A program made the translations under genes and the position numbers. Below, piece after piece: positions 28,078 through 54,512 of a DNA stretch of 64,000 bases. A model generated the notes under the pieces. The model was not told the DNA's origin, searched no databases, and saw nothing but the letters and a program-made list of their open reading frames with translations. Each line of letters begins with the position of its first letter. Positions within the stretch are counted from its first letter, which is position 1. The DNA is from a virus: IMG/VR virus record IMGVR_UViG_3300017527_000515, positions 51,458 through 115,457 of that record. One strand, written 5' to 3'.

Positions 28078-31000
28078 TTAACCTACACCAGGTCTTGTAG
28101 CGAAGTTCTGTGCATCTTGTGCGTATCGTCTGGCTTCACCGACTTCATACTGCATACGCCCCTCGAACCTAGTTACTCTGCTGGTTATTTCACTTATGTT
28201 ATTTCTATTAGTATTAATATCATGTGTGACCTGATTCATAGCTTCTGACACTGCGCTTTGTATTTCAGGCTTCACATTATTAGCTGTCAAGGCTTTGGAT
28301 TCTAGGTTAACCATTCTTTCCTCTAATTCTCCCTTGACTGTTATTAGTTTGTCCTGTACATCAACTACTGCGTTAGATATTGAATCTAGGCTGTCTGCTC
28401 CTACAGATCCATTAGCTGATGGATTAACATCTACAGTGGCATTAGCCAGCGCCTGGCTTATAGCATTGGATATTTCCGAAGCTACTCCAGCAGCATCTAC
28501 AGGTACGGTAACGTCGGCAGTATCAACCCTGACCACAGCGCTGTCGGTGTCTACCTTAACTACCGCGCCCTCCAAGTCTACTGGTACCTTAGCATCAGTT
28601 GTATCTACCCTAACTTTAGCGTCAGCTTCTACTTTAACTTCTGATGATTCTATAGCACTCTTAACCTGATCTGCTATCTGACTAGCTACTTCACTACCAT
28701 CTATTTTAACAGTGGTTGAGGTTAAGGATGCTCTAGTCAAATTATCATCTACCATACCGCCCGCCTGGAATCCCTTAGGTAGTATGGTTTCTCCCTTCTG
28801 AGCAAACACCGTACCAGTTTGGGCAACAACTCCACCATTATGCATCACTGGTCTAGATTTATTACTACTAAACGTGTCTTTATAAAACTGTTTAGGTACT
28901 TCGTAGAAACCCTGTTTCATTGCTTCGAACATTCTTCCCAGCTTCTCTCTTGCTGAGAAACCTCGGGTTTCTTTCTCGAAATCTTGTTTACGACCCTGGC
29001 CAGCTATTTTTATCTGGTCTCTTACTGCTCTTAGCTCAGCAGGTTCCAGTTTACCCTTACCGAATCTACCATATAACATAGCCAATGAGTCTACAGTTGC
29101 TGCGTCTTTGGCCATACCGAATTGGTTAGCTATATCCTCAGCATTAATGGCTGCTTTTTCCAACATGGCCTTAGCAGCAGCAGCGCCTACCTCATCCCCT
29201 GCTTCTTTAAGTCTGACATACTCTTTAAATAGATGAGGACTGGCAAGAAATGCCAATCTAGGATCTTTTATTCCATATTTATTCTCATCAACCTTTTTAC
29301 GAACGTCATGGAAATTTTTAGTAAGTTTTATATCCTTCATCAGAGGCTTGATCTTGTTCATGTCTACATTGCCGGACATAACCATAGCTTCTAGACTTTT
29401 TAACTCATCTTGTCTATTAAAGTTTGGATCATTCTCTGATAAATATCTTAACTTATTGTAATATTCATAGGCCAGCTGGGTATCTCTACCTATACCTGCC
29501 GTACCGTATAGATTTTCTAAAACATTACGATCCGGTGCTTGAGGATCTACCTCGCCCTGCATAGCCTTTCTGCTTATACCAGCCACTAGTTGAGCTCTGG
29601 CTACCTTAGCACGTGTATCCTGTAGTTTCTTACCTGGGTTCGCACCTGGGGTGGCCTCGTATCCAGGACCCACCGTTGGAAGCGGTAGTTGCCCTCTGGC
29701 CATAGCTTCTTTTCTTTCTTTATATGCTAATTCATTAAGGTCATATTTAGATTGAACACCGTGGGATAGACCTTCCGCACTAACTATACCGGTTTTAGAA
29801 TCGAACGTATAGTTGAATAGCCCTTTACCCTTAGGTGCTGGTAATATACCAGGCTCTCTCAGTGCGTCATAAACTTCTTTATCCCTCTTAAGAGCTTGTC
29901 TATTCTCGCGTTGTATTGTTTTAGCATGCTCTGCTTGAATCTGGTTATAAACATCCACATTACCAGAAGCCTTTGCCGCAGCAAGTTGTTCTTCGTAGGT
30001 ATGCTTACCTACTAATGCTTTCTCAGCGAACGCCTGCTCATTCAAAGCTGCCAATCTCTTACTTTCTTCCTGAACAGTTAACTCAGCAAATCTAGCAGTA
30101 GGTTGTCCAGCACCAAATGATGGATCTGGGTCTACTATACCTGTATTAACTCTATATGCTTTATTGTTTGCAAAAGTACCTTGATCTCGGCGTGCTGTAG
30201 TCATAGCGTCATCTGGCAAACCACCTACTATGTTACCGTTCTCATCCAGCTCAACTATCTCTCCATTTATCTCGGTGAATCTTCTAGCCAGACCGCCCTC
30301 TGCATACTTCTTACGCTTCATCCTACCGCCCATGCCTTTTTTATCTATAGCATCAAGTATATTAGTCTTGGTGTCTTTACTGGTAAGATAACTAAATGTA
30401 CGGGCATCACTTCCCATTTCAGCAAGTTCTTCTTCTGTAGCTTCTACCTCACGGCCGAAGTAAAATTCTTTAGCAGTCTTAAGCCATTCGCCTATCTGGC
30501 CTATAATACCGCCTTCGGCGTAATGCTTACGCTTCATCCTACCGCCCATGCCTCTAAACTCTGCTGGTTCGGATAAGGCTATACCATACTTATGGTATAT
30601 GTCATTTTTCATATCATCACTGAGTAATTTTCCCGCGCCTATATTACGGAGAAACTCCCCAATTTTTCTTTTTTTCTCATGGCGTTGCTTAAGAGCGTCT
30701 AGTTGTTGTTTTAGTTTTTCCTTTTCTTCTTTAGATCGTACCGGCTCAGTTTTAGGTACGAAAGGTTTTATCTTACCACCATCACCATACTTCTTAATCA
30801 TGCCGCCCATACCCTTACTATCTATGTCACCTGCGGCATCAAGTATATTTTTCTTGGTTTCTTTGCTGGTTAGATAGCTAGTGGCTCGACCGCTTTCGGC
30901 GCCTCTGGCTAAATCTTCCTCACTTACTTCTACATCCCTACCAAAAAAGAAATCCTTTGTTGTCTTTAGCCAATCTTTGATGCGGCCCGCCATTCCGCCT

Positions 31001-34000
31001 TCGGCGAAATGCTTACGCTTCATCATGCCGCCGCCGCCTTTATTGTTGTGCGGGTCTACTGCATCAAGTATGTTCTTTTTAGTATCCTTACTTGTTAAGT
31101 AACTAAATGACCTGGCGTCTTCTGCCATTTCAGCTAGCTCTTCTTCTGTAGCTTCAACTTCGCGGCCAAAATAAAACTCTTTGGCGGTCTTTAGCCAATC
31201 ACCAATCTGGCCCATAATACCGCCCTCAGCAAAACCAGTGAACAATTTAGTATATTCCTCTACTAACGGGCTCTTAATTTCTCCAGCTTTGACTAATTTC
31301 ACAAACTCTGCAAAGTTTTCTCGGCCAAATTTAGAAGCATCTCCTGTGAATCTCTCAGCATATTTAGACACTGGAGGTTGGGCTATAAAACTATCCATGA
31401 AATCCTTCATCTTCTGAAGTCTTTCTTTAGTTAGGGTCTTAGCTATCTCTGGATCATCTATATGTTTACCTATTAATGATGGATCTTTTAAGAATTTCTT
31501 TACAGCTGATTCTGTTACATGGCCTCCTATCTCATGCTCAAATCCGCCCGCTACTACTTTTCTTCTTGATGCTAAATCAGAAGCTTTAGCCAAGCCTCTA
31601 GAAGATGAAACTATATCTTGTCCCTCTTTAAAAGTAGTAGTTAGCTTTTGTCCTTCCTTAGCCTTAGTACTTACCTTTAGATTAGGATTAGTCATAAGAC
31701 CGGCTACAGGATGATTAGATCTAGCTAGTTTAAATTCCTCGTTAAGTATGTCTATATTTTTAGCTAAATCGGCCTTATTGGTTGCTTTACCTACAGACCC
31801 TGATAAATCCACTGCTGTATCTAGAGATTTAAGAGCCTTTCCTGATTTACCTAGATGCTTTATAGACCCAGGTACAAATGGCAGCACTGCTAGACCGGCC
31901 AATCCTCTACTCAAGGGACCCAGTTTCTCATCAGTGATAACATCTATACCAGTTATAGCTTCTTGAGCGCTTTTAACATCACCCACTATAGGGGAAGCGT
32001 CTAATACAGTAGAAGTAGCAAGCTTACCAAAAGACTTTAATTCGTCTTTAGTAGGAGGTCTGTAAATCTCATCATATTCTGCCTTGGTCATAAATGGTTT
32101 TCCTGTAATGGTGCTAACAGGAGCTCCATACGCAGATCTCATTTTGCGGCCTGAAGGACCTACATATAAAGGATTAGTTTCATCATACTCCCTAGAAGAA
32201 ACCAACTTGTCAGGAAATCCTCCGTTAGCCATCCCCGGAGGTAATTGACCTTCCTTATTCATATATTCAAGAGCAGACATTCCTAACTTAGAAGCAGATG
32301 CTGCTTTGATTACATATTCACCTGGGCTTAACATGGCAGGGACCTTGTCTTCTTTAGGACCACCTTCACCGAACACTTTACCGCCCTGAGCTCTGCCCGT
32401 TCTTTTCTCATGCTCAGTTCTTGAGTCTATAGATTTCACATTGAATTTGGGGTCTGTGTACGGGACTTTTTGTATTCTACGAAGTCTTTCCGCCTCGTGT
32501 TGATCATAACCCTTATCCACAAACGCCTGTCTATTAATATCTGGAGCTTTAGATTTAATAACATCCAGCAATGCTTTGATGCCACCATCAATATTATTTA
32601 GAACTGATGTTTGATCAGTCAATACCCCAGTTTGTGCATCAATACTCTGTTTTATTTCCCCCTGACCAGCAGCAGTTTTTTCAGTCTGTACGTTTATAGA
32701 CTGATCCACCTTGTTAAATCCAGTCTTGTTTTCCTCTATTAGTCTTAACCTGGTTTCCTCATGTGCATTAGCTCTTTCTGCCGCGGCCTCTTCTAATTGA
32801 TTTTTATATTCCTGTAGCTGTAATAATTTCTTATTCAGCTCTATTAGCTCAGTTACTCCTTGAGGTGTTCTCCCCTCTTCTATATCTTTTTTATTTAGAC
32901 CTATTATATTCTCTCTTGCTGTCTGTACTGCCTTAATCTTGCTGTCTATAAGAGAAATAATCTTTTGGGTTTCCGCCTGTCTCTGTCTGGCCGCAGCAAT
33001 ATGATCTGGCATCTGTGGACCAACAAAAGATTGCTCGGCTGGTGTATAACTTCTTAAATATTTTAAGGCCTCTGACTCGTAAGCAAAACCACCGCCTTGT
33101 AGCCCTGGTAGTTTACCATACTTATTTATGTATTCTAAATTCTTACGACCTAATTTAGCTGCAGATGCTTGGTTTATTACGAATTCTCCAGAGCTAAGCA
33201 TGGCCATTATGTTATCATCTTTTGGTCCACCTGGTCCGAATATAGCTCCGCCAGCGGCCTTTTTAATAGCCGAATCAACCACCTTCACTTCTAAAGGATC
33301 TCCTAACTTGCTTATCATCTGTTCCATATAACCGGCTACAGATGTAAGACCTTCTTTTGATCCTCTGGTACTTTCTGCTATACTAGATAGATGGTCTATC
33401 ATTAGCTCTTGATTAGATGCTAGACCCATCTTCTGGAATTCTTTTCCGTACTGTTCTTTTAAGGAATTCTTTAAGCCTTCGAATTTACTGGTTAACTCAT
33501 CAATTTGCTCTACAGTTATACCCCTACGTTCTTTCTTACCCTCAGCATTTATTATCTCATCGGGGGCCGCCTTTAGAAACGCACCGGCCTGTTCTTGTAT
33601 AGCTTTAGCAGTTGCTTTGAGTTCTGGAGACACATTATTGTTTCTAGTTATACGTTCTAGATCAGTCATAAGTGTTAGGACTGGATCAGTTTGTCTCTTA
33701 AATCTCTCATCCTGTTTTTGCTGCTCTTTAGCGCGAGCTTCGCCTTCGTATTTAGAATCTAGAGACAGATAACGCTGCAGCAACTCAGACGTTTGGCCTT
33801 GCTGCTGCATGGCTCGGAGGATCTCTGCTTCCTCAACGTTTCTTCTGGTGTCAAATTCCTTTAGGTTAATTCCACCTCTGGCTGCCTCTAATCTAGTGGC
33901 TGGGTCTACAAGCTGTAATGCGTCTGCTCCACTTCCGCCAAGAAATTTATCTGTTTTAGCTCTGAACTCTTTAATACTAGCTAATTCATCTATAGCGTCC

Positions 34001-37000
34001 TGTACTGATACTTCGGTAAGTGCGTCATTAAGTTTGAACATAGCCTCACCTAATAACACTGTTCCGTTATAGGCTGCGACCACAGCGGGGTTCATAGCAT
34101 TAGCTAGACTATCAGCATATTTTTTAGTAGACTCTATAGTCTTATCTAATTCTTTCGCAGCATTGGCATTCTCACCAGCTGCTGATTTGGCGTATTCAGC
34201 TCTTCTCTTCTCTGCTTCGGCTAACTTTTTCTCAGCCTCCATCAACTGTTGATGAATTCTCATCTTACCTTCATCTACAGATCTTTGTTGTTTAGATATT
34301 AGCTCGTCTCTTTCAGATTTTATACCAGCAATTTCCGAGTCCATACCCTCTAAGGCAGACAGTTGGTTATAAACACCATCTTCCTGGTATTTTTGTCTTA
34401 GCTGCTCTAGTCTAACTATTTCCTGTTCGGTCCTTGTTATGATGTCCTGAGTGCTCTTAAAAGCAGTCATAAAACCTCTAAGGTCTTCATCAGCAGAGGC
34501 GAAAATTCTCTGCTGTGTGGACATCCCACTTCGTTCTAGAGGTAGTTGTGCGTCTCCTGCGAAACCACGAGTGTCTCTATTTAGAAAGGCACCTAAGCTA
34601 TACTTTCTGGCTACCTCTAATTGAACAGCCTGATTGGCCAAGTCTCTAACAAAATCTTGTACCTGTTTGCGTATACCCTCAAACAGTTCCAATCTATGCA
34701 TAGTATCTGCATTGCCCTCCATTTCTCTAGTGAGCGCAGCTATTTCACTGTTCACGCCGCCAGTAGTCTGGGCCAATGCATCTAGAGCTTGCTGGGCATT
34801 ATAAAACACATCCAATGCTTGTTTCTGTGCTTCAGAGTCCAAAGGCTTTTTAAGGTCTTCTTGGGCTCTTTTAGATTGATCAAGTAATTCCGTTATTATC
34901 AATTCAGCTACTTGTGGCCATTCACTGGCTATCTTATCCAGTAGTTCTCCTCTCTGCTCAGATAGTCTTTCTATGTCTGCTTTTCTAACTCCAGGACCAG
35001 TTAGTTCAGCGAAAGTCCCGGCCAATGTAGAAGCTAGGGCAGCCGCTAAAATTTTCTTTAGGCCGCCAGCACCGCCTTTAGAAGCCTCGTCTCTAAGAAC
35101 CGCAGCCCTTTTCTCTATCTCAGCCTCCGGTAAGTCCTGTAAACCGGTTAGTCTGGCCTTAAATGCTTCTCTTATGCCTTCTCTGGTAGTACCAGTTATC
35201 TCTTTTACTCGGTTCTCAAAATCACCCTTGAACTCCTTACCTGCTGAGCCTAAATCTTTTAAGGTACCGATAGATACATCACCAGATTCTCCCACTTCTT
35301 TGAGTGTTTTACCTAGCTCTTTACCGAATTCCTTAGCTGATTCTGGTAGCTCTTCTCCTGTTATCTTAGATGCTGCCTGCATAGCGGCGTATAGAACTAG
35401 AGAAGCTCCACCTATACGTTTAACGTTGGTTTCACTTATACCAAATGCTCTAGCTAGTGCTATTGTTCCAGTCTCAAGATTGGCTAGGCTAGCTACTATA
35501 GTATTGAAATCCAAAGATTTTTGTTCGGCAGCTATTGCTTTTTCTAAAGCTGCTACCTCAGACTGTCCAGTGGCTATTCTACCCTCGTCTCCTGCCTTTT
35601 TGGCTTCCAATAAAGCAGCTTTTTGGCCAACTAATTGCTCGTTCATCACGGCCAACGCTGCTGATGAATTACTCTTACTGAATGATTGGAATGCAGCAAC
35701 GGCTGCTGAGACCTTCAATAAATTCTTAGAGTTAAAGAAAGTTTTTTCAGATAATTTCTTCTCTGCTTCTTGTATAGCAACCAGCTGTTTGAGCTCATCA
35801 CTCTCAGCAAAGCCAGGGATTGATTTTAGTTTGGGTATTGGAATTGGCCCGCCTACTCCGGGTAAAGCAGTAAACCCCCTCAATCCTAACTTTGTTCTAG
35901 GACCAGCGTCAGTTTTAAATCTCTCGGTAAGTTCGTTAGACTGTAATCCTCTGAAAGATCTTTGTAGATATTCCTCTCTGCTCAAACCTGCTCCAGGTAA
36001 TAACCTAGAAGGACTTAGACCTACAGCAGCCTGTCCTCTACCAAAGGTGGTGAATTTGTTCATGGTGTCTACTAAAACATTTATCCTTTCTTCCAGAACT
36101 GCACGTTCTCTAGGACTGGCACCTTCTCTAGCGCCTGCTGCTTTATGTATTTCATGGGCTATCAACAGAGATATACGTCTTGCTTCTGCTCCACCCTGCT
36201 CATCTTCTGGTCTACTATCAAATTCTGCCACTCTTTCCTGTAGACCTATTATTTTATCAGTAAGTACCTGATTGGTCTGACCCAATGAAACTAACTCTTC
36301 CAGGCTGGTAGCTATAGGATCTAAGGCAGTAACATTACTCTTAGTTAAGTTGTTTATATCTTTAGATAATGTAGCCCCTACCACATCACCAAGTACAGTA
36401 CTTTTTTCTATAAATCCTTTTATTTCCTCTGGGGTAGCATCAGGGCCTATAACAGTCCCTATACCTTGTTGTGTAGCTGTAATAGTTTCTATTGCCACCT
36501 TAGCTCTAGCTAATTCTTCTCTACGTTGTATAAGAGCTTGTCGTCTTACATCAGCAGACCTGAAGTTTTGAGCAGCTCCCTGGTATTGAGGTTGATTTAA
36601 TAGAGCTAGTTGTTTTACAGTAAGATCCTGTACACTACGAACACCAGTATCTATATTATCCAAACCCTCAGGTAATCCAGCCAACAAACCAGAGGTGACT
36701 TTCACAGATTCCTGACGAGCCTCTTCTATAGCTATATTTTCAGCAAGAACTCTAGTACCTTGCTCTATAGTCTTAGACAGATCAGCAAACACAGCTGCGT
36801 ATTGTACAACCACTTGGTTATTCTTAAGTACAGCTTGTTGTGCTAATAGCTCCTGATATACCTCCTCAGAAGCATCGGAAGTTTTTTCTAATGATCCTGC
36901 TTTATCAAATCTTCGTACAGATTTATTATATTTTTCCATGGGCTCTAAGAAATATTTTCTAGTATCTGATGCCCATTGCTTCTGTAAATTAGTAACTTCG

Positions 37001-46000: not shown

Positions 46001-49000
46001 GCATTAGTGGCTTTCTTCATTACAGCTGGGAACTTACGTGAGAATACAGCTGTACCTATAGCACCTTCTTTACCTACCGCGGCCTCAGCCAAACCGTGGA
46101 AATAATCTATCTTGGCTTTCTGTAGGTTATCAAGTGCCTGTTCGTATTTAAATTGTAACTCTGCGTCTACATCAATACCTAATTTAGCTGCTAGTTCTAG
46201 GCCTTGACCCTTCTGTACATCAGCAGCTAAGCGATACAGTTTCTTCTCAGTGACTGCCATCTCGTTAGCCATGAGTTTGTGCTTATCTTGAAGTGCCGCT
46301 AGTAGATCATTAGGGTCATCAGTAGCTCTACTCTTGAATCTGGAGTCACTCTCTAATACTTTCTTGAACATAGCTATGTTGTCAAACTCACCTTGTTGTA
46401 TTTCAGCTATGCCTTTTACTACAGTATTATATGTCTCTTGTGCTGACGGTCCTTTACCTATTAATAAGTCAGATGCTCTACCTATAGCTGTAGCTAAGGC
46501 AGCCTGCTCTGATTTAGTGCCTAATTGTTTTTGTAGAAATTGCTGTACGTTCTCGAACTCTGTTGGCCCTCTTCTTACTTCTTCGCCGTCTATTATCCTA
46601 GCCGGAGCCTCAGTCTTAGATAGAGCGTTAGTTAGAGTATCAAATATCTTTCTGAGATCAGCCGGTGCTTCTGGAGACTTTGAGTATCTAAGATTTTGAG
46701 CCTGTTTCAACATCTCCGCTACTTCTTCGAACACTCTTTTCTGTACAGTAGTAGCCAACTCACCCTTACCGGTTAGTAGATCGCTTTGGGCTGACTGTCT
46801 AGACAGAAGCTCTGCTTGCTTTTCTGCTGCTCTAGGATCTCCAACTCGGAGCATCTCGTTGAGCTCCATCTCCAGTTTTTCTATGTCAGCTTGTAGAGTG
46901 GCCGGTCTATCTAATAACTCTTTGGCCTTCTTGGCCATATTAACCACGTGCTGTAGTCTACGACCTATATTTTCTACACCTCGCTCTCCGCCTATCAGTT
47001 CCTCTGCGTAAGTACCTCTTGCTAAAGCTCCTGGTACATAGAAAGGCTCGCTCTCTCCAGCCTGACCACCTACCTTAGGTATGTCAAGGAAGAAAGGTTT
47101 GGAGAATTTCTTAGTATCAAATATAGTATCTTTAAGGGTACGCGGATCTGTTTCATCAGCTTTTTCGCTAAGAATACCAGTAGTTTGGTCAAAGTACTTA
47201 ACGGAGCTCAGGGTTACCTTATCAAGAACATTTATCTGTCTTTGTTGTAGCGTACCTGTCTCATCAGCCATGAACTGTAGGGCCTTTAAGAACTCCAATT
47301 GTTTTCTCTGATTGGCGTTGGTAGAGCTCGTGATTTCATCAATTAAAGCAGACTGCTCTCCGAATACAGTAGAGTACGCTGACAATACTGGTATATCCAC
47401 ACTGGCGCCCTTTATACCTCTACGCACATCTTCTTTGCGCCACGGCTCGGTTTCCCCCGTCTCCTGTACAATAGATAGGAACTTAGTACCTACTATACTC
47501 TTACGTCTCTCACCAAATTCATCTATAACAGTGGAATAGTAATTAGACATAGCCTCTAGAGCTTTAGCTCGTTCAGCTATGATCATTTCCATCTGGCGTT
47601 TTTCTTCTTCTGTGTCTCCTGAGGCTTTAGATTTAGCTAGGGCAGCGGCTAATTGTTTTATCTTATCAGTATCACCGACGGTTTCAAAACCTAAAGCGCT
47701 TGATACCTGGCTAAGCTCACCTGCCTTACCGCCACCACCTAATAATCTCTCGTACTGATTTTGGGAGAATTTGGTAGGTAGTGTAGTGAATCCCCGTTCA
47801 CCAACGTCTGTTATGTTACCAAGTACTGCCTCTAGAACTTCAGGCTGTAGACCACGTTTACCTATACCGACTGAACTTATTCTAACATCGATGGCTTTTT
47901 CTTTTACTAATGCCCCACCTATCTCATCTGTAAATAATTTCTTTATTTGTTTGATTCCAGTTACATCATCTGCTAAGCCGGTCTCGCCGCCTGCCAGCTG
48001 TCTACCTGTAATTGCCTGGAATGCTTCGGCTGCTTTCTTGAAAACTCCAGCCTGTTGTGCCTGCTCTTCTGGTACTACTATAGCAGTTTTAGCGTCTCTA
48101 AATAGGTCCAGTATGAATTTATTACCAGACGCTGTTAGCATTTTCTTCAGTATAGCTACATCAAAACCCTCTGATGTCAGCTTCTTTTCATACTTATCTA
48201 CTACCTCTGCCAGAAGCTCTCCCATGCTCCTAGGCAACACTGCCACACCTAGGCCAGCCTTCTGTCTCTCCTCATCAGTAAGGACCTTGACTTTAGCTTT
48301 TGGGAATGCCTGTAGAATTTTACCTATCTCAGTAGCTTCGCCTTCTTCTAACCCTCCAGGAGAAACACTTACCCCCTTAGATCCGTATCGGGATGTGAAC
48401 TTTCTACCGAAGGAGTTTAGGAATACCTCTGTCAATCTGGCTTGCTGTACCTCTACCTCCTCACCGCGGACTACAGTAATAGCACGTTGAATCTCATCTA
48501 TGAAAGCCTGGTCGGCTCTACCTTTATATTGTTCTGGTACACCGAGCACCTCTTGGATTTTGTCCAACACAACTGCAATATCTTTATCTTTTATTGGTCC
48601 TGCTTGTAGATCACTAACCCCAGGCGCAGTTTCCAACCCACCACGGATTCTACCTCCGGGGGCTGGTCTTACTAATGTTTTAGTTATAGTAGTCAGCGCT
48701 TTAGCCAAATTACCAGACACTAGAATCTGATCTTCCATTGTACCGGCAGTATGGCGTAGTTCTGTAAGAACATTAAAACCATAACCCTTTGTGCCTAATC
48801 GTCCTGCAGATATCAGTTCGGATTCCCTCTCAGATCTTAGAGCTGGAAATTCAGTCCCTATACCTTCAAGAGTTGTGGCTTTAAATTCCTTTGCTAGTCT
48901 GTCTAACTCTGTCTTGGATGAGGATATAGCATTGGTAACACCAGCTATATTCCTACCAGTCTGAGTAAATTGAGCTCCGAACGGAGCAAGTTCAGGAAGG

Positions 49001-52000
49001 ATGTCGGTGTACATTTTGGTAGAAAAGGCATCCAATGCACCTAGATATTTGGTACCTTTGTCAGTCTGGCCAGGTCTGTAAAACTCTCCTTTACCAGCAA
49101 GTGCTTCTGGTATGCCTAAGGAAGATACAGTACGTACACCCTCTTTTAAAAGTTGTTGATTAGTTATGTAAGAATCTCTTACTATCTCGTTTAATCTAAC
49201 ATTAAGATTCTTTATGAACTCCTTCTGGGCTGCAGGATCTAGATCTCTACGGCCTTCATCAGCGTAAACATCTGATGTTCTTGTTAGAAGGTTTAATACG
49301 TTTTCTTGCTGCAAACCACGACGTGGGCGGCCAGGCTCTATTAAAGGTAGAGACTGTACCACTTGGTTGATTGCGTTCTCATACTCACGGATGGCTTTGT
49401 CGAATTGGGGCTTAGAACCTAATCCTTTTAGGGGCTCTACCCCAGTTTTTTCGCTGCCTTTTAGAACTCTCTGGATAACATCATAGATATTTTCGAACTC
49501 TATTTTGTCCATAGACTTCACAATATCATATGCTGATAGCCCTGCTGCTCTAAGGGCATCTAACAACTTATTTACATCTCTGTCTACTTCATTAGCCTTT
49601 AAGGCTTTCTCCATGTCAGCTATTAATCTAGATCCGCCCCTACTCTTACTTCCTCCTAATTGGACGGCGCTTACATAAGCTGCACTAGGAATCTGCTCTC
49701 TCAATGCTTGTAGGTTTGCCTCGTTAGCGCGGGCATAGTCCTCCAACATCTGGCGAGCCAGATCTCTAGCCTTGTCTAATTTTAATCCAGCAGGCTTAAC
49801 ACCAACTTCTCTAATCTGAGCAGCAAAATTCTTTTCATATACTAAAGCTTGTTGTTCTTGTAGCTTCTCATATATCTGCTCAAAACCAGTCTTAAACGTA
49901 CCAAACTTCTGCAGTGCTCTCTGACTACCTCTAGCAGTTTCAAAGGCAGGCGCACCTGTTTTAGTCAGCCTAGCTGCCGGTAGACTTACAGTTCTCACTA
50001 GCTTTTCTTCTTTTAATGTTCTAGCAGCTTCAGTTCTACCGACAGTAGCTTTGAATACTTGCTCTAGTGTGGCTCTGTCTTGCCCCAGAACCTTGTTTAA
50101 TTGTTTTACTATGTCAGCACTAGGCAACACACCTTTGATATCGGTTTGTTTAATGTTTACCAGATCGCCTTGAAATCTCTCTATTTCTTTAATCTGTTTG
50201 ATCTGATCTGCAGTGACGCCCTTTAACCATTCAGCTATTTTGCCAGTAAGGTTGGCGGGGGAAGGGAAATTAGCTGCTAGTTCGGTAGCTAACACATCAG
50301 TTAGTTCTTTAACCATGGACTCGGGGCTGCCTTTGGTGGCTGCACCGCGGCCCTTAACGAATAACTGTCTCTTGATTGCCTCGACATTAGCTATCTGGAA
50401 AGCGTGTTGTTTGCCAGCTTCTTTTACATTAGCGCCTGAAACAACCTTGAAGAAATCCTGTACGCTCTTCTCAGAACCGTCTCTTACGATCGACCAACGA
50501 TCGCCTGCTTTTTTAAACTCGGAATTTAATGTAGTAACTATATAGTCTTGTAGATCTACTAATGAAGATGATAGATCATTAATACGTTGTTGTATAAGTT
50601 GTTTATGTTTCTCTTGTGCCTTAGACGAGAAAGTCCCTTCGAATTCTAAGTTGATTCCTTTTTTAGTAGCTGGTAAGGCAGCATCTGGGTATGCACTTAC
50701 AGATGCTGGTCCTCTTAGCCTTGAGTTTAACAAGTCTATTTGTTTAATTAAAGGACTTAGATCCTTAGAACCTTGCCCAGGCAGAGCTGGGGCAGGCCTC
50801 GGAGCAGGTTGTCTGGTTGCCTTCTCAAAAGATTCTGCGGCTTTAGTCAGCTTCTTTGAGGCTTCTGTTGCTTCTTTAAGACCGGCCTCAAATGCTTTAT
50901 CAGTTTCTTGTGGAGATTTGTTTATTTTCTTCTGTACTTCATTAACTAAAACTCTTAGCTGGTCTAATTTCTTTGTGTTTTCACCAGCTATACCTCTGCC
51001 TGCAGCCTCTTTAATAGGAGTAGGCTTCATCTCTCTTAATACTTTTACTAATATATCTTGCTCTGAGGTGATCGTAGCTAGATCTTTTTTGTCTCTGGTC
51101 CCAGATGCAACTTCTTTGGTGACCTTTGCTACTTCAGCCTGGCTCTCTCTGATTACCTGCTTGATGAGTTTACTTATCTCACCGAAATAATTCTTTATAT
51201 CTTTAGCTGGAAGATCGGGTAGATTAGACTTACCACCTGACGGGGTCGCAGCCTTAGAACTCTGATCTAATTTCTTAGTTAAACTATCAGTACTCTTGAC
51301 CACCTGTTTCATGGTGTTATCAAGTTGTTTTATTTCTTTAGGAGCACCTAGTTGTTTGGCTCCAGAAGGTTTATATTCCAGCTCTACTTGTTTAGATATA
51401 CGTTCGAACTTAGTTAGGAAGTCGTCAAAGACTTTCTTGAACTTATCAGAGTCCAATATTTTCCCTGGTACATCTTTTACAGATCTAAATTTCTCTGCCA
51501 TCTTCTGCTTGGTGTCTCTAACAGCATCACCAAGGTCTCTCATTATACTTTCTTGTTCTTTGGTGAGAGTCTTAACAGATTTCTTTAAATCCTTATAATC
51601 CTGGGACAGTTCCTTGGCTTCTTTTCTAAGGTCAATAAGAGACTTTATTACCTTGGGAATCTCTGTGACGTCTATTCCACCATCAGATTTCTTAAGCTTA
51701 GCTATGGCCTCCACTGCTTTGGTGGTAGCGTCTGCACTTCTTTGAATTGATTTGTAGGTTTTGGTAGCCTCTTGTATCGACTTGCCGAGTTCAGTGGATA
51801 CACTAGATCTAATGGAATCACCAATAGCCTTGGAAATAATTTTTGAACCTTCGGGGCCCAGTTCTACACCAGTTTGTCTTGATAGGGATGTATTAAGTTT
51901 ACCTATAGCAGCAGCAACTTGCTTATCTACATTACGTAAAGCAGCCTCCACACTCTTAGTGTGTTCAGGACCACTGCGCTGACCACGTTTAGACATCTCC

Positions 52001-52323
52001 CTAAGGATAGAGTTCGCCGTATCCAGGGAGACATTCTTGACTATTCTCTCTAGGTCACCTTTATTTATAGGTTTTTCAGATGGTTTGCCTGCTGGTCCGC
52101 CAGTCTGTTGGTTTCTTAAGACTCTACGTAGACTGATCTCTAGTTGTTTACTGAGTTCATTAGACAGAGTCTTATTGGCGTCTTTGGACACCTTGTCCAT
52201 GACTTTTCCAATCTCACCTGCTAATTTCTTCTCATCTACTCCAGCAGACTTCGAAGGTCTGCCAACACTTTTTTGGGCTCCTCTGCCCTCAAAAATGTTG
52301 TGATTGATGGTGTACTCGGCCAA
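28078..52323 (-). CDS. Giant tape-measure polyprotein (8081 aa): two-barrel RNA polymerase, PD-(D/E)XK nuclease, TP901-type TMP core and C-terminal cassettes
   Basis: TTG start with GGGAGGTG RBS; canonical TMP position after the tube and chaperone genes; domain motifs are listed in the sub-features. Confidence 0.9.
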   Translation of the reverse strand: MAEYTINHNIFEGRGAQKSVGRPSKSAGVDEKKLAGEIGKVMDKVSKDANKTLSNELSKQLEISLRRVLRNQQTGGPAGKPSEKPINKGDLERIVKNVSLDTANSILREMSKRGQRSGPEHTKSVEAALRNVDKQVAAAIGKLNTSLSRQTGVELGPEGSKIISKAIGDSIRSSVSTELGKSIQEATKTYKSIQRSADATTKAVEAIAKLKKSDGGIDVTEIPKVIKSLIDLRKEAKELSQDYKDLKKSVKTLTKEQESIMRDLGDAVRDTKQKMAEKFRSVKDVPGKILDSDKFKKVFDDFLTKFERISKQVELEYKPSGAKQLGAPKEIKQLDNTMKQVVKSTDSLTKKLDQSSKAATPSGGKSNLPDLPAKDIKNYFGEISKLIKQVIRESQAEVAKVTKEVASGTRDKKDLATITSEQDILVKVLREMKPTPIKEAAGRGIAGENTKKLDQLRVLVNEVQKKINKSPQETDKAFEAGLKEATEASKKLTKAAESFEKATRQPAPRPAPALPGQGSKDLSPLIKQIDLLNSRLRGPASVSAYPDAALPATKKGINLEFEGTFSSKAQEKHKQLIQQRINDLSSSLVDLQDYIVTTLNSEFKKAGDRWSIVRDGSEKSVQDFFKVVSGANVKEAGKQHAFQIANVEAIKRQLFVKGRGAATKGSPESMVKELTDVLATELAANFPSPANLTGKIAEWLKGVTADQIKQIKEIERFQGDLVNIKQTDIKGVLPSADIVKQLNKVLGQDRATLEQVFKATVGRTEAARTLKEEKLVRTVSLPAARLTKTGAPAFETARGSQRALQKFGTFKTGFEQIYEKLQEQQALVYEKNFAAQIREVGVKPAGLKLDKARDLARQMLEDYARANEANLQALREQIPSAAYVSAVQLGGSKSRGGSRLIADMEKALKANEVDRDVNKLLDALRAAGLSAYDIVKSMDKIEFENIYDVIQRVLKGSEKTGVEPLKGLGSKPQFDKAIREYENAINQVVQSLPLIEPGRPRRGLQQENVLNLLTRTSDVYADEGRRDLDPAAQKEFIKNLNVRLNEIVRDSYITNQQLLKEGVRTVSSLGIPEALAGKGEFYRPGQTDKGTKYLGALDAFSTKMYTDILPELAPFGAQFTQTGRNIAGVTNAISSSKTELDRLAKEFKATTLEGIGTEFPALRSERESELISAGRLGTKGYGFNVLTELRHTAGTMEDQILVSGNLAKALTTITKTLVRPAPGGRIRGGLETAPGVSDLQAGPIKDKDIAVVLDKIQEVLGVPEQYKGRADQAFIDEIQRAITVVRGEEVEVQQARLTEVFLNSFGRKFTSRYGSKGVSVSPGGLEEGEATEIGKILQAFPKAKVKVLTDEERQKAGLGVAVLPRSMGELLAEVVDKYEKKLTSEGFDVAILKKMLTASGNKFILDLFRDAKTAIVVPEEQAQQAGVFKKAAEAFQAITGRQLAGGETGLADDVTGIKQIKKLFTDEIGGALVKEKAIDVRISSVGIGKRGLQPEVLEAVLGNITDVGERGFTTLPTKFSQNQYERLLGGGGKAGELSQVSSALGFETVGDTDKIKQLAAALAKSKASGDTEEEKRQMEMIIAERAKALEAMSNYYSTVIDEFGERRKSIVGTKFLSIVQETGETEPWRKEDVRRGIKGASVDIPVLSAYSTVFGEQSALIDEITSSTNANQRKQLEFLKALQFMADETGTLQQRQINVLDKVTLSSVKYFDQTTGILSEKADETDPRTLKDTIFDTKKFSKPFFLDIPKVGGQAGESEPFYVPGALARGTYAEELIGGERGVENIGRRLQHVVNMAKKAKELLDRPATLQADIEKLEMELNEMLRVGDPRAAEKQAELLSRQSAQSDLLTGKGELATTVQKRVFEEVAEMLKQAQNLRYSKSPEAPADLRKIFDTLTNALSKTEAPARIIDGEEVRRGPTEFENVQQFLQKQLGTKSEQAALATAIGRASDLLIGKGPSAQETYNTVVKGIAEIQQGEFDNIAMFKKVLESDSRFKSRATDDPNDLLAALQDKHKLMANEMAVTEKKLYRLAADVQKGQGLELAAKLGIDVDAELQFKYEQALDNLQKAKIDYFHGLAEAAVGKEGAIGTAVFSRKFPAVMKKATNAIVDRTQEFTDFQKALASVSSELPDDAANTLADVINDIQSVSTKHGKRIAKQRKAGFPVLRQHQLGIPEVTAKKLPISEFEQKIQFGKKGPRAQTSKIDGTLYDILSYRERLEDLVGDDGPLSELAAQELERTKTFVEAIRYPFTGVSSIVPYEAELLSGTQGERAKNAFVVPGAPDLNLDELNDIIAPVKGIIEGLHEQREQLFRQADANDMPVDQTRVDELSALMDKLARAVSEVTPKYAAHTAKLDFDGDEIAVHTARTAEAREEIAKHHKSVAEFNDSLQSVYRDIFTADALGSQQPTGDAILSEMAESFYKKFPKEKGFDFLVKPFLTGQASIDPDDPTAALKTPTLEYATPSEQLSILGLGGTGVEGINEVLKGIIQDTILSSSSRDVLLKQVGDVESPFGDVASELKAVKQQGGIEKRVSFVEDIYKAIEELDTAMGTTFVDEIQAAVRSRLFESKYRDAVEAQLFKIHTGIETEALYRLNRLAESSVGFGSGLLGTGGAEFKPSEGFSGRNPNLGILGGSQDEIARDFYTKFNEVFRFAIQKGMDVKHAGGSTIAGEIQSRIAQGYDGVTELWASLLPEGEIADFEAAVNKSTKLRLGKMDTSTIRKELEQLYEARGTEYSSFDLSRADRDELIDMAVKATGLESFFREMADQVREGAMEGILRNIEKLSPDKRAQIGDPKSYAKNLIQEEIAAGGINVREHITVPNLPLYITRQESNLKGQEKRFTERYGEPTVPQGVQFLRKKPKEQEELLKKYKQAKATARNIQDAIAEAAEGLDAGAYSQLVKSTLDNIHRDQLLIDDEFKKLQAEGFDITKVDRSLDALKSRVLLEEELPSLTRDILKKAPEDQIKEIEKLADLVGVPTLTREEKIDVSEKLLKDFRKHGEKLLSKDPDFNKEEVEVAAESYAQELAAKAEIVYEMDRILDVLSTRAKEGITTLSLFPEASDLSRPKATGQSARSYKFSQDMQAAAIQGQAMREEAKGIHGPGGSGTIFGGGGVGGQFPMTGGVVPVHIHSVAQGVGVFFGGGGGTGARRDYTDQLNPDFAPQQQTKSALSEIRDQHDQHGEASIRSLQSQLKDYKKISSDFDRHSENIGKPEFDKLQKKYFPGVEVGPRGADVNLEQEYNQLKKQFFTNLNNVFTASKFKGGGADLGELIKGNRQGSQLEAITGQLLGLDAEELKSDYVQSAFDIGTALHAKMQKKIKDEAEAAGRGGEVEIEKFVYLKPKEFVEGVRGPITGFIDVAYKNAQGQVEKISDIKTTGETFAKFESISRAIGPEGTIALADILDKEIPEHIRQKLEDYRSQLNVYLGALVQSGQAAPGVQASIDFIPSEDAGLTTPAKSVTFGFDPERLKSDLETLKTARELVNNYVLDLSTSIEDVPEEHQDLVSKLRKRVSGKSPAFSKARNLKSYLLEQELDKIYGVTEQSDEFIEEYVQLSRKAFEFMEGKEGVYKETRANFKAAENRAKDIGQAMKEDPEYGRATFGEKITGGTPEERTLGKDKVKKFPDPLKDQLAAISELHQGSIAIQSGLSDLNFNENIEKMHTDIKSALSGGAGEAPPTGPQFSKLLTELVEGDYITFQESMKAWQLWRISMGDFLIFQAKQAEEVFDVANAQGPATREFSDFRKRVEKSREFIVKSLGKTTDIYTKDRRFLLPDLAKQAGVFQTPEDLYKKTKQPFGEGDERTRGIYKNLIDKLEAGGLGAPAEEIRKLVDELADVDEAAKRVLMDVDLFERKGRDATEAWDFEKVAKRARVLREALSQYSRFNLSDEFQTDVEKKFQVRSLLQYLKQIEQVYGKIDLGRLQRGAFGEYETGAVKVPTFLPPNQQQALHRRNIEKFKQFAERPGPESDTPGTGPRVGESFSYFEKVTDSAGNVLRNFRHDFKKFGETTDDTAGKVENYTHRTTDLIDKMHMAGGTFRSAARRVIMWGAAATLVYGGVQQLKDSVGELADIEVSIAQLRMVMNPLEADFDALTQSAVMFAKEYGVSINEVLRGMKIFAQQGLKQSEVIERTRVSTLAANVSTLSASEATEALTAAMKSFGTEMGSADMALDAWSETEARHAITAADMANAIKKSAAAAKNAGFTFNELNGIVAGIGSVTRQSGKEVGTAMRFIARRLFSEKGPKALGEIGIPTITATGENRRGFDILSDLSKQWAMLTNAQKLNVAQSLGGTRQYNALLVAMDNWDEVLDAIEDSTNSKGSAERRNVEIMKTYAKQLEQTRAAATELKMELGKFIFPVFKGGLKALKTVFEFMSAIPTPVKAAGAALTLFFGYAAKGVDIFDKLVEVFGKGKGVIDAFVRSVSKEFDISAFEIFGGKGGPQLEGIKSFAKGVPDALKAAGLDDLHSGFGKLTYVIKEAGMAFNTWAAAGGTSAEEMGKTIEGLGDEVKKWAERTDLFTDVGQLLATKIPGWKDDLTIAVINVMEEVAKNSGRAFELFGKYFGEAGAQFAKFIGDTDPGLLKAITPMAITVGALIPAFKELASRIQETGMTAQDYAQSVYNSRRVQEDQIKNLTTLSRQYDRLQKKVKEVNAVEADPKLKEVRKASDNYTHPLIALGDIQKDATKWANELAMVNNELVLSYDKQGNAILKLSGDYKEYIANLQRASALELAKTDIDVLKRFTQDLTKVDFGESIKNILGTALGEVPGFGPLLKDIVKVSPAKQMEMLTGRLNDLLLARSQNPLSTAFDEDISTLQDALGKLKKIYDGTAKDFNKTLAGIFKFPGASAVDRDTIARLLGDPELLRGFQFAVEVDPVINAANAQRELERALKFPNAPKGTSTLFDPTAAGGRSTINFPEFLNLPEIQGRDLQGATILQQVFPTRRAVIGAAKDITKALLEGSGIIQKEAKKGTKLVTGDIVTFLTQPAARAGIAGQQGVVEVKKNVDGVLEAFVTYYNYKAKEGVGELETKSIDEVADMVEAIFPAGRVQSELENRLENLSTFVTGAAAGIVGLDEKAFKKDFDLGARFYSDISTTTALQGQRGFNFQTGEFGEVTNLQKQWASDTRKYFLEPMEKYNKSVRRFDKAGSLEKTSDASEEVYQELLAQQAVLKNNQVVVQYAAVFADLSKTIEQGTRVLAENIAIEEARQESVKVTSGLLAGLPEGLDNIDTGVRSVQDLTVKQLALLNQPQYQGAAQNFRSADVRRQALIQRREELARAKVAIETITATQQGIGTVIGPDATPEEIKGFIEKSTVLGDVVGATLSKDINNLTKSNVTALDPIATSLEELVSLGQTNQVLTDKIIGLQERVAEFDSRPEDEQGGAEARRISLLIAHEIHKAAGAREGASPRERAVLEERINVLVDTMNKFTTFGRGQAAVGLSPSRLLPGAGLSREEYLQRSFRGLQSNELTERFKTDAGPRTKLGLRGFTALPGVGGPIPIPKLKSIPGFAESDELKQLVAIQEAEKKLSEKTFFNSKNLLKVSAAVAAFQSFSKSNSSAALAVMNEQLVGQKAALLEAKKAGDEGRIATGQSEVAALEKAIAAEQKSLDFNTIVASLANLETGTIALARAFGISETNVKRIGGASLVLYAAMQAASKITGEELPESAKEFGKELGKTLKEVGESGDVSIGTLKDLGSAGKEFKGDFENRVKEITGTTREGIREAFKARLTGLQDLPEAEIEKRAAVLRDEASKGGAGGLKKILAAALASTLAGTFAELTGPGVRKADIERLSEQRGELLDKIASEWPQVAELIITELLDQSKRAQEDLKKPLDSEAQKQALDVFYNAQQALDALAQTTGGVNSEIAALTREMEGNADTMHRLELFEGIRKQVQDFVRDLANQAVQLEVARKYSLGAFLNRDTRGFAGDAQLPLERSGMSTQQRIFASADEDLRGFMTAFKSTQDIITRTEQEIVRLEQLRQKYQEDGVYNQLSALEGMDSEIAGIKSERDELISKQQRSVDEGKMRIHQQLMEAEKKLAEAEKRRAEYAKSAAGENANAAKELDKTIESTKKYADSLANAMNPAVVAAYNGTVLLGEAMFKLNDALTEVSVQDAIDELASIKEFRAKTDKFLGGSGADALQLVDPATRLEAARGGINLKEFDTRRNVEEAEILRAMQQQGQTSELLQRYLSLDSKYEGEARAKEQQKQDERFKRQTDPVLTLMTDLERITRNNNVSPELKATAKAIQEQAGAFLKAAPDEIINAEGKKERRGITVEQIDELTSKFEGLKNSLKEQYGKEFQKMGLASNQELMIDHLSSIAESTRGSKEGLTSVAGYMEQMISKLGDPLEVKVVDSAIKKAAGGAIFGPGGPKDDNIMAMLSSGEFVINQASAAKLGRKNLEYINKYGKLPGLQGGGFAYESEALKYLRSYTPAEQSFVGPQMPDHIAAARQRQAETQKIISLIDSKIKAVQTARENIIGLNKKDIEEGRTPQGVTELIELNKKLLQLQEYKNQLEEAAAERANAHEETRLRLIEENKTGFNKVDQSINVQTEKTAAGQGEIKQSIDAQTGVLTDQTSVLNNIDGGIKALLDVIKSKAPDINRQAFVDKGYDQHEAERLRRIQKVPYTDPKFNVKSIDSRTEHEKRTGRAQGGKVFGEGGPKEDKVPAMLSPGEYVIKAASASKLGMSALEYMNKEGQLPPGMANGGFPDKLVSSREYDETNPLYVGPSGRKMRSAYGAPVSTITGKPFMTKAEYDEIYRPPTKDELKSFGKLATSTVLDASPIVGDVKSAQEAITGIDVITDEKLGPLSRGLAGLAVLPFVPGSIKHLGKSGKALKSLDTAVDLSGSVGKATNKADLAKNIDILNEEFKLARSNHPVAGLMTNPNLKVSTKAKEGQKLTTTFKEGQDIVSSSRGLAKASDLASRRKVVAGGFEHEIGGHVTESAVKKFLKDPSLIGKHIDDPEIAKTLTKERLQKMKDFMDSFIAQPPVSKYAERFTGDASKFGRENFAEFVKLVKAGEIKSPLVEEYTKLFTGFAEGGIMGQIGDWLKTAKEFYFGREVEATEEELAEMAEDARSFSYLTSKDTKKNILDAVDPHNNKGGGGMMKRKHFAEGGMAGRIKDWLKTTKDFFFGRDVEVSEEDLARGAESGRATSYLTSKETKKNILDAAGDIDSKGMGGMIKKYGDGGKIKPFVPKTEPVRSKEEKEKLKQQLDALKQRHEKKRKIGEFLRNIGAGKLLSDDMKNDIYHKYGIALSEPAEFRGMGGRMKRKHYAEGGIIGQIGEWLKTAKEFYFGREVEATEEELAEMGSDARTFSYLTSKDTKTNILDAIDKKGMGGRMKRKKYAEGGLARRFTEINGEIVELDENGNIVGGLPDDAMTTARRDQGTFANNKAYRVNTGIVDPDPSFGAGQPTARFAELTVQEESKRLAALNEQAFAEKALVGKHTYEEQLAAAKASGNVDVYNQIQAEHAKTIQRENRQALKRDKEVYDALREPGILPAPKGKGLFNYTFDSKTGIVSAEGLSHGVQSKYDLNELAYKERKEAMARGQLPLPTVGPGYEATPGANPGKKLQDTRAKVARAQLVAGISRKAMQGEVDPQAPDRNVLENLYGTAGIGRDTQLAYEYYNKLRYLSENDPNFNRQDELKSLEAMVMSGNVDMNKIKPLMKDIKLTKNFHDVRKKVDENKYGIKDPRLAFLASPHLFKEYVRLKEAGDEVGAAAAKAMLEKAAINAEDIANQFGMAKDAATVDSLAMLYGRFGKGKLEPAELRAVRDQIKIAGQGRKQDFEKETRGFSAREKLGRMFEAMKQGFYEVPKQFYKDTFSSNKSRPVMHNGGVVAQTGTVFAQKGETILPKGFQAGGMVDDNLTRASLTSTTVKIDGSEVASQIADQVKSAIESSEVKVEADAKVRVDTTDAKVPVDLEGAVVKVDTDSAVVRVDTADVTVPVDAAGVASEISNAISQALANATVDVNPSANGSVGADSLDSISNAVVDVQDKLITVKGELEERMVNLESKALTANNVKPEIQSAVSEAMNQVTHDINTNRNNISEITSRVTRFEGRMQYEVGEARRYAQDAQNFATRPGVG
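30310..31233 (-). repeat. Three imperfect ~65-aa repeats inside the TMP C-terminal region
   Basis: (F/Y)AEGG..G.I.(D/E)WLKT.K(E/D)F.FGR(E/D)VE..EE(E/D)LA......R..SYLTSK(D/E)TK.NILDA at about 31010-31233, 30810-31008 and 30310-30522; also visible at DNA level. Confidence 0.9.
31290..31560 (-). other. Zincin-like metallopeptidase module (within TMP)
   Basis: FEHEIGGH (31519-31536), then VSKYA and ENFAE, the HExx(x)H...SxYA...ExFAE pattern of phage and toxin zincins. Confidence 0.55.
31860..32010 (-). other. Pre-toxin-TG-like segment (within TMP)
   Basis: VLDASPIVGDVKSAQEAITGIDVITDEKLGPLSRGLAGLAVLPFVPG matches the PT-TG consensus (DxxPxxGxxKxxxEAxTGxDxxTGEKL..xxR). Confidence 0.7.
39150..40215 (-). 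other. TP901-family tape-measure core domain (aa ~4035-4390)
   Basis: AQLRMVM...FAKEYGVSINEV..GMKIFAQQG...STLAANVSTLSASEATEALTAAMKSF...AITAADMANAIKKS...VTRQSGKEVGTAMRFI..R...LSDLSKQW..LTNAQKLNVAQSLGGTRQYNALL. Confidence 0.9.
41880..42420 (-). other. PD-(D/E)XK (RecB/Cas4-like) nuclease domain (aa ~3300-3480)
   Basis: GTALH (H ~3311), EVEIE, GFIDV, SDIKT (D ~3372) and YRSQLNVY give the complete RecB-family motif series. Confidence 0.8.
44300..48800 (-). other. Single-chain two-barrel RNA polymerase (beta-like then beta'-like), aa ~1180-2680 of the TMP
   Basis: MEDQILVS (M1196), GRKFTSRYGSKGV (48370-48408), IDVRISSVGIGKRG..EVLE (D1479), IVGTKFL (G1612), GKEGAIGTAVFSRK (G2084), IRYP (R2248), DFDGDEIAVH (DFDGD at 45244-45258, D2356). 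Confidence 0.88.
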
Positions 52324-54172: not shown

Positions 54173-54196
54173 TGTATAATCCTCCGTGTCCTTATA

Positions 54197-54445: not shown

Positions 54446-54461
54446 GTCCTATAATCCTCCT

Positions 54462-54499: not shown

Positions 54500-54512
54500 T
54501 CCTGTGTTCCTA

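Follow-up and report, generated by a model that had tools for sequence, protein, structure and literature searches.

The closest described counterpart of the protein analysed here is gp96 of the Thermus phage P23-45, a tape measure protein (TMP) of 5002 amino acids (aa) with an N-terminal virion RNA polymerase (RNAP) whose DFDGD motif lies at residues 779-783 (Chaban et al. 2024, PMC10770324). The active fragment of gp96, residues 327-1124, has a flat, clampless structure, in which its authors see an adaptation for tail passage; the polymerase was detected in virions and is proposed to act at the TMP pore, where it would transcribe the pre-early genes while the DNA enters, i.e., concomitantly with translocation (PMC10770324). 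Virion RNAPs are giant polypeptides, and their fusion to large regions of unknown function has been noted (Chaban et al., PMC10770324). The current study deals with a protein of 8081 aa encoded by a single open reading frame (ORF) in the virus record IMGVR_UViG_3300017527_000515, a linear IMG/VR fragment of 115,457 bp; the stretch analysed, referred to as the window, comprises the final 64 kb of this record (64,000 nucleotides, positions 51,458 to 115,457). By analogy with gp96, we consider it likely that this protein is the TMP of an uncultivated and probably large tailed phage, that three enzyme zones are built into it and that its polymerase is ejected to transcribe the first genes.

The giant ORF occupies positions 28078..52323 on the minus strand (8081 aa plus stop) and is open over 24.2 kb according to the ORF listing. 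An original prediction, made from the letters of the DNA, had described a single uninterrupted frame and had assigned, from the N- to the C-terminus, a coiled, low-complexity region (aa ~1-1100), RNAP beta and beta' motifs (~1180-2680), a Gly-rich linker (~3100-3150), a PD-(D/E)XK nuclease (~3300-3480), a TP901 TMP core (~4035-4390) and an xxxGG-delimited array with toxin-like and peptidase cassettes, with gp96 as the precedent for the polymerase fusion. The precedent is real, the frame is indeed uninterrupted, and the central assignments were borne out: the beta motif is represented by RYGSKG (aa 1312) and the beta' motif by DFDGD (aa 2356), Gly accounts for 21% of aa 3101-3200, a nuclease motif set is present at aa ~3320-3424 (evidence at the level of motifs and leads), and the TMP core was recovered as PF10145 (PhageMin_Tail) at aa 4096-4289 (92.3 bits vs. 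a cut-off of 33.2, E 5e-26). The N-terminal assignment needs to be narrowed, as only aa 1-~580 are variable and Lys-rich, whereas aa 581-1110 are conserved, folded and similar to the lobes of RNAP beta. The tail delivery, early transcription, takeover and proteolytic release that the prediction had added as inference are hypothetical. The TMP identity is further supported by sixteen PHROG TMP families that match aa ~3824-4570, the best of them over aa ~3824-4470 (E 4.8e-83), and hydrophobic segments are located at aa 4370-4399 and 4577-4602.

The beta' side of the polymerase was recognized by its fold. An AlphaFold2 model of aa 1221-2420, built on a multiple alignment of 28 sequences, had a mean predicted local distance difference test (pLDDT) score of 73.5, with 85-91 around DFDGD, and its top Foldseek matches were almost exclusively beta' subunits, RpoC1, archaeal A' and eukaryotic largest subunits of the Rpb1 type, with probabilities of 0.9-0.99 and weak E-values (6e-3 upward). 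The fold match spans the N-terminal 500 aa of beta', including the clamp, and a beta'-type double-psi beta-barrel with DxDGD, the mark of a two-barrel RNAP, is present. The motifs GKEG...SRK, IRYPFTGVSSIVPYE and KLDFDGDEIAVH correspond to GKQGRFRQNLLGKR, NRAPTLHRLGIQAFE and NADFDGDQMAVH of RpoC, and hhalign placed the family profile on residues 458-485 of E. coli RpoC, limited to the catalytic motif and with weak statistics (E 0.0086). In the polymerase region of the window protein, Pfam returned a sub-threshold Rpb1_2 match only, a phmmer search of PDB sequences with aa 1101-2800 yielded nothing meaningful, and PHROGs contain no family for this region. Past the catalytic barrel, NExxRFAIQKGMDVKHAG at aa 2648-2665 is invariant; the bridge helix and trigger loop would be expected within aa 2404-3050.

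On the beta side, five motifs occur in the order known from E. coli RpoB, namely, MEDQILVS (aa 1196), FGRKFTSRYGSKGV (1312), IDVRISSxGxxKRGLQxxxLE (1478), VGTKFL (1611) and FGE (1653), all of which are invariant in 16 aligned sequences, and two of the spacings are nearly those of RpoB (133 vs. 135 aa and 42 vs. 41 aa). An insertion of ~160 aa separates RYGSKG from the PIDV motif, and the beta'-like part starts ~35 aa past the last beta motif, which is the layout of a head-to-tail fusion. The AlphaFold2 model of aa 581-1780 (pLDDT 66.5) was confident at aa 581-1110 and 1360-1610; a Foldseek search with it returned generic helical repeats only (probability <0.1), and, for aa 581-1110, lobe-like folds were the top four of 48,161 chains with middling Z-values. 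The beta side is thus assigned by the specificity and collinearity of its motifs, and its barrel is a predicted one. Taken together, motifs and models suggest a single-chain RNAP of ~2500 aa that is laid out like a head-to-tail fusion of beta and beta'.

The nuclease-like domain further downstream carries an invariant residue set in alignments of 14 and 12 sequences, i.e., the His of GTALH, E3334, G..D3357, D3372-I-K3374-T and Q3420-x-N-x-Y3424, and the resulting H/E...D...DxK...QxNxY pattern is that of RecB/Cas4-type PD-(D/E)XK nucleases. Fifty-two relatives have the domain in the corresponding position, and DxK...QxNxY is present in 49 of the 61 giant proteins described below. With PF12705, two sequences among 12 members gave sub-threshold matches, at best with E 0.0018; in the ESM Atlas, PD-(D/E)XK proteins form the closest clusters (score 0.94-0.95, at lead level), and no PHROG family exists for the nuclease.

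The 8081-aa protein is a member of a large undescribed family. A word-indexed search with aa 1150-2750 retrieved 21 proteins of 5023-7864 aa with 30-63% identity, all of which (21/21) contain PF10145, and a HMMER search with aa 1221-2420, run exhaustively over 1.84 billion representatives, retrieved 102 clusters at 50% identity. Nearly all of these clusters consist of giants that match at the same relative position or of contig-truncated fragments of such giants, and not a single cellular RpoB or RpoC was among the matches of the exhaustive search. The homologs sought for the RNAP-TMP fusion are therefore at hand: it recurs in ~100 clusters and in 61 giants of 5013-8081 aa, the window protein included, which have a common domain order. 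Against a background identity of 30-60%, the catalytic motifs are conserved, with D[FY]DGD in 60 giants and DHDGD in the remaining one, and with R[YF]G[ST]KG or a near variant located 901-1077 aa from D[FY]DGD in 58 of them. Two distant Cys-free proteins, P0095 (5013 aa) and P0114 (2236 aa), have DFDGD at aa 1528 and 1597 and match parts of the polymerase region only (E 1.6e-36 and 2.9e-5); judged by sequence, they may represent more remote branches of TMP-linked polymerases.

Contigs of relatives were found with a degenerate DNA pattern for QKLDFDGD, which matched 36 IMG/VR contigs, 32 of them encoding true relatives. In ~186,000 prokaryotic species genomes the same pattern had 18 matches, of which one, on a short contig, was a true relative; a prophage origin was rejected on these grounds, and the family looks like one of free phages. 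This single relative is located on the 16-kb contig CAZRJS010000021.1 of a Woesearchaeota metagenome-assembled genome (aa 814-3480 aligned, 32% identity), probably a viral contig that was mis-binned into the archaeal genome, and an archaeal or DPANN-associated host may be an alternative. No match was obtained by tblastn of the polymerase piece against 50,697 phage records, and a related-locus search with a single protein found nothing.

Not one Cys occurs among the 8081 residues. Since the other ORFs of the contig contain 0-3.5% Cys, typically ~1%, about 80 would be expected, and the 61 giants together have only 22 Cys in 439,755 residues, with 49 of them lacking Cys altogether. The same holds for gp96 of P23-45 (0/5002), whereas E. 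coli RpoB and RpoC contain 7 and 15, respectively. Because the avoidance extends over enzyme block and ruler alike, it is the best internal argument that the block is under the same constraint and that the whole chain would share the fate of a virion protein, i.e., extended storage and passage through a narrow channel outside the cell. Two smaller Cys-free ORFs on the minus strand of the window, 14104-14808 (234 aa) and 57203-57841 (212 aa), whose neighbours contain 0.4-3.5% Cys, could be further tail-lumen or ejected proteins.

In comparison with gp96, the window protein is likewise a giant Cys-free TMP whose core is preceded by an RNAP, predicted to be of the two-barrel type, with a DFDGD metal site, with the putative Lys (second) barrel preceding the Asp barrel, with hydrophobic segments and with a peptidase-type module later in the chain. 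Sequence similarity was not found, neither by phmmer against PDB sequences including gp96 fragments (no match at E up to 1) nor by blastp and the family profile against gp96 (chance-level or coiled-coil matches only). The gp96 enzyme comprises ~800 aa, belongs to the single-subunit clade and is clampless, whereas the window block has ~2500 aa, three times as many, and, in place of the flat gp96 architecture, lobes like those of beta and a clamp like that of beta'; it resembles cellular-type enzymes more than gp96. While the gp96 polymerase lies near the N-terminus, the window block begins at ~aa 580. The chain exceeds gp96 in length by 60%, and further additions are a nuclease, which is conserved, and a cassette zone, which is hypervariable. 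Since sequence similarity to gp96 is lacking and the clamp is absent from gp96, the fusion of TMP and RNAP probably occurred a second time, independently of P23-45. Beyond the work on gp96, no paper linking tape measures with two-barrel polymerases was found in the library searched.

The comparison with E. coli RpoB and RpoC reveals a common order of motifs, FEDxI, RxGxKG, P(V/I)D(I/V)...LE, VG... and FGE, followed, as in RpoC, by GKxG..., RxP...S.I..(F/Y)E and DFDGDxxAVH. Natural fusions of beta and beta' exist, e.g., in Helicobacter. Unlike the cellular subunits, the window polymerase is too diverged for HMMER and Pfam, contains large insertions, resides in a virion structural protein, has no known alpha, omega or sigma partners and, because of its lack of cysteines, no Zn-binding elements. 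By analogy, it would resemble the N4 virion RNAP, gp66 of phi14:2 (a crAss-like phage) and the virion RNAPs of phiKZ/AR9 as a phage-carried enzyme that is delivered with the DNA and starts transcription independently of the host, but those enzymes, none of which is a tape measure, travel in the capsids of phages with short or contractile tails; the N4 enzyme is T7-like, and gp66 is QDE-1-like.

From the observed domains, the family and its conserved motifs, we infer packaging, ejection, refolding, activity and timing as follows. The Cys-free chain would be stored in an extended state in the tail lumen, where it would set the tail length. Upon infection, its C-terminal end would exit first and help to breach the envelope, or its variable modules would act on host targets, and the hydrophobic core region would form or line a membrane channel. 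Polymerase and nuclease would be the last to come in, immediately before the DNA, and would then regain their fold; the polymerase might transcribe the leading genes of the DNA as it arrives, with no need for the host RNAP, and possibly help to pull in the DNA, while the nuclease might act on DNA ends or on host DNA. With tail length scaled on P23-45, for which a preprint gives an 800-nm tail for 5002 aa, the tail would have a length of ~1.2-1.3 um with the entire chain as the ruler and of ~0.7 um with the portion from the TMP core onward (aa 3650-8081) as the sole ruler.

Several observations weigh against this interpretation. A clamp-bearing polymerase of 2500 aa is bulkier than the flat gp96 enzyme, and tail passage would therefore need an unfolded state. 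The pLDDT falls below 50 around RYGSKG, hhalign against the single E. coli RpoB sequence recovered the RHGNKG site only (E 0.18), and Pfam at E up to 10 found no RNAP model in the 16 beta-region sequences. For the nuclease, a PDB profile search with the alignment was empty, and phmmer of aa 2701-3700 against PDB sequences yielded nothing meaningful. The four genes upstream of the giant gene match no Pfam or PHROG family, so that the neighbours are uninformative on the tail type, and a record that is ~40% complete does not extend to the head genes, the early genes or any second polymerase. A more far-reaching version is accordingly put forward as a tentative proposal, which we consider possible rather than probable: a complete beta-beta' RNAP was fused to a TMP independently of P23-45, and the entire Cys-free chain of 8081 aa is threaded unfolded through a tail of >1 um and refolds at the host membrane as a tethered transcribing, perhaps also importing, machine, accompanied by a nuclease and by swappable C-terminal modules that open up different host envelopes or disable functions of the host.

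An unlikely alternative is a polyprotein that is cut in the infected cell before tail assembly, so that only the portion from the TMP core onward is packaged, with polymerase and nuclease serving as non-virion enzymes in middle or late transcription and in recombination. The Gly-rich linker at aa 3100-3150 and two less conserved stretches, aa 3050-3250 and 3500-3650, which separate the enzymes from the TMP core, would suit such cleavage, as would the zincin-like module in the chain and the difficulty of fitting a folded, clamp-bearing polymerase of 2500 aa into a tail tube. The Cys avoidance, however, is as strict in polymerase and nuclease as in the ruler, in contrast to the 7 and 15 Cys of RpoB and RpoC, the fusion is kept across ~100 clusters with contig fragments as the only split forms, and the fused polymerase of P23-45 was detected in virions (PMC10770324).

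Phages can also use transcription for DNA uptake, as T7 RNAP pulls in T7 DNA by transcribing it. We regard it as quite unlikely that the main task of the membrane-anchored polymerase of the window protein is to draw a very long genome from a very long tail by transcribing it, with the nuclease trimming or opening the leading DNA end and gene expression being secondary. Such a motor would profit from the tethering of the polymerase, in one chain, to a channel-forming TMP core, and the large genome estimate (115 kb at ~40% completeness), the common direction of the contig genes, which suits entry-coupled transcription, and the transcription during translocation proposed for P23-45 (PMC10770324) are in agreement with it. 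It is compatible with the transcription of the first genes by an ejected polymerase, and nothing in the present data separates import from expression.

It is very improbable that the polymerase- and nuclease-like regions are catalytically dead relics kept as ruler length or scaffold, even if the beta barrel is recognized neither by Pfam nor by fold, the Zn-binding cysteines of beta' are gone and the zincin motif of the window protein is off-register. Filler sequence would not keep catalytic residues, and precisely these are the most conserved ones among the giants, against a background identity of 30-40%, with the three Asp in 61/61, the Lys motif in 58/61 and the nuclease set in 49/61. An assembly chimera, or several genes read as one, which the metagenomic origin and the unusual gene size might suggest, is effectively refuted by a frame open over 24.2 kb and by the same domain order in 60 other giants from independent samples and databases.

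The fusion of TMP and RNAP is thus no longer a one-off; its only described case (P23-45, 2024) has been regarded as peculiar to a small number of Thermus phages, and it is now joined by a widespread uncultivated family of ~100 clusters at 50% identity with a different and far larger polymerase. This points to convergent evolution and to host-independent early transcription as a general strategy of long-tailed phages. The tape measure here carries not one enzyme but several. A beta-beta' layout with a clamp calls into question the idea that it is the flat shape that permits tail passage, and the near-total absence of Cys over ~440,000 residues, as in gp96, provides a mark, both simple and testable, by which proteins that have to cross the tail unfolded may be known. 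If the P23-45 ratio from the preprint applies, the family would have the longest phage tails yet. Structural work would gain from it a relative of cellular RNAP that is minimal, consists of a single chain and is free of Zn. The positions of all features are compiled in Table 1.

Table 1. Features of the giant gene and its surroundings, with positions in the window, and conservation along the protein (BLAST coverage over 60 giants).
Feature	Residues (aa)	Position in window	Strand	Basis or remark
Four upstream genes (339/259/532/337 aa)		52374..57251	-	Adjoin the giant gene in relatives; presumed tail module
Shine-Dalgarno sequence AGGGAGG		52331-52337	-	7 nt upstream of TTG; graded strong
TTG start codon		52321-52323	-	Start of the 8081-aa ORF
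Lys-rich N-terminal region	1-580	50584..52323	-	Variable across the family
Conserved folded region	581-1110	48994..50583	-	Resembles N-terminal lobes of RNAP beta
Beta-like catalytic half	1111-1687	47263..48993	-	Ordered motifs
RYGSKG	1312-1317	48373..48390	-	Beta-type Lys motif of the second barrel
Beta'-like clamp core and active-site double-psi beta-barrel	1688-2403	45115..47262	-	
DFDGD	2356-2360	45244..45258	-	Metal-binding aspartate triad
Conserved remainder of polymerase block	2404-3050	43174..45114	-	
Gly-rich linker	3100-3150	42874..43026	-	Short hydrophobic core VPVHIHSVAQGVGVFF
PD-(D/E)XK (RecB/Cas4-type) nuclease-like domain	3290-3490	41854..42456	-	
Tape measure core	3824-4470	38914..40854	-	PF10145 and PHROG
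Conserved, mostly helical ruler	4471-6350	33274..38913	-	
GGxxFGPGGPxxDxxxAxLSxGEFV...GG motif, copy 1	6353-6415	33079..33267	-	
GGxxFGPGGPxxDxxxAxLSxGEFV...GG motif, copy 2	6642-6704	32212..32400	-	
PT-TG pre-toxin domain (PF14449)	6770-6832	31828..32016	-	Pfam
Zincin-like module	6835-7030	31234..31821	-	HEIGGH...SKYA...ENFAEF
Three 75-aa repeats and one Lys/Glu-rich unit	7024-7335	30319..31254	-	
C-terminal region	7800-8081	28081..28926	-	Common to ~half of the family
Conservation	1-550			Variable
Conservation	550-3050			Universal
Conservation	3250-3650			~43/60 by whole-protein BLAST; 52 relatives, fragments included, when searched alone
Conservation	3650-5650			Universal
Conservation	5700-6400			More than half of the giants
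Conservation	6400-7800			Hypervariable apart from two short motifs
Conservation	7800-8081			~Half of the giants

The hypervariable C-terminal zone is framed by the motif GGxxFGPGGPxxDxxPAxLSxGEFV, of which two clear copies and a degenerate one are present and which matches PHROG TMP families. Here, the cassettes proposed by the original prediction stand in part. The PT-TG domain is genuine (PF14449, 46.8 bits vs. a cut-off of 23.5, E 3e-12) and also occurs in the relative P0005, but it is internal and followed by ~1250 aa, including the C-terminus common to about half of the family, and a toxin domain was not found at the extreme C-terminus of the window protein. The proposed peptidase corresponds to a zincin-like module whose nearest ESM Atlas neighbours are small metallopeptidase clusters (0.91-0.92) but whose zinc motif HEIGGH (HExxxH) is one residue longer than HExxH, so that the canonical HExxH with a third ligand is lacking. 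Its SKYA...ENFAEF part is common to relatives with a canonical HExGH...SxYA...ExxAE and matches the copy of P0016 (E 7e-4), and a canonical HExxH is located in the variable zone of ~20 of 57 relatives. By sequence, the module appears to be zincin-derived, and the activity of this copy is doubtful because of the additional residue. The GG pattern of the proposed array is real as well, but it arises partly from the 75-aa repeats, which are joined by GMGGxMKRKHYAEGG linkers, and from the copies of the GPGGP...GEFV motif; cleavage at the GG sites is hypothetical. The repeats were delimited by eye and by slicing, a self-BLAST for internal repeats found none, and phmmer of aa 6401-8081 against PDB sequences yielded nothing meaningful.

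Enzymatic modules in the distal part of a TMP, which is the first to leave the tail, have parallels in T5 Pb2 and in mycobacteriophage TMPs with C-terminal lytic or peptidase domains or motifs. Polymorphic-toxin PT-TG proteins are comparable insofar as PT-TG precedes a zincin-like segment and the zone is as strongly variable as toxin tips; the window protein differs from them by its internal PT-TG, the HEIGGH motif, the flanking conserved GPGGP...GEFV motifs and the common C-terminus, and no immunity gene has been recognized, no candidate having been examined. The pattern resembles the swapping of cassettes inside a fixed frame and not the replacement of a tip, and a role of the variable zone in penetration of the host envelope is at least as likely as an effector function. 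Among the relatives, P0022 (aa ~6490-6740) exhibits five helix-hairpin-helix-like (P)GIGK motifs and has PolX/IMS-type Pfam matches, and P0018 (aa 6419-7273) has a Pfam match to the RNase_T (DEDD) exonuclease; the family-unique segments of both lie in the hypervariable zone, in which the Pfam matches are presumed to fall.

With respect to the genomic setting, CheckV estimated a completeness of ~40% for the 115-kb record, and the full genome may therefore have ~300 kb and belong to a jumbo phage; for the same reason, genes outside the record cannot be called absent. All record ORFs of at least 150 aa outside the giant gene lie on one strand, with the exception of one overlapping plus-strand ORF. 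A second beta'-type DxDGD motif was not found in the other contig ORFs, an absence that means little at ~40% completeness. The four upstream genes are kept beside the giant gene in seven related contigs with ~50-65% identity. Two of them, 52374-53393 (339 aa) and 53393-54172 (259 aa) on the minus strand, abut and are weakly similar in their N-terminal halves, and in four relatives the 339-aa protein also matches the position of the 259-aa gene in tblastn (~20% identity, E to 1e-6); this sequence similarity suggests that they may be a paralogous pair that replaces the usual G/GT tail chaperones.

Inside the giant gene, plus-strand antisense ORFs of 179-432 aa are located at 34973-36271, 37400-38107, 39212-40051, 47771-48490 and 50651-51190; the composition of the giant gene is skewed (AT skew of -0.1 to -0.24), and they most likely result from this skew and are not genes. 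Downstream follow very large ORFs of 2911, 2378, 1884, 1178, 1176 and 957 aa (window 2-9255; genome 27074-60712). Pfam, applied to the five largest, had no match for those of 1884 and 1178 aa, and in the 2911-, 2378- and 1176-aa ORFs it detected F5/8 type C, ConA-like lectin, C1q/BclA_C and DUF2341 domains. The series looks like an unusually large set of receptor-binding fibres.

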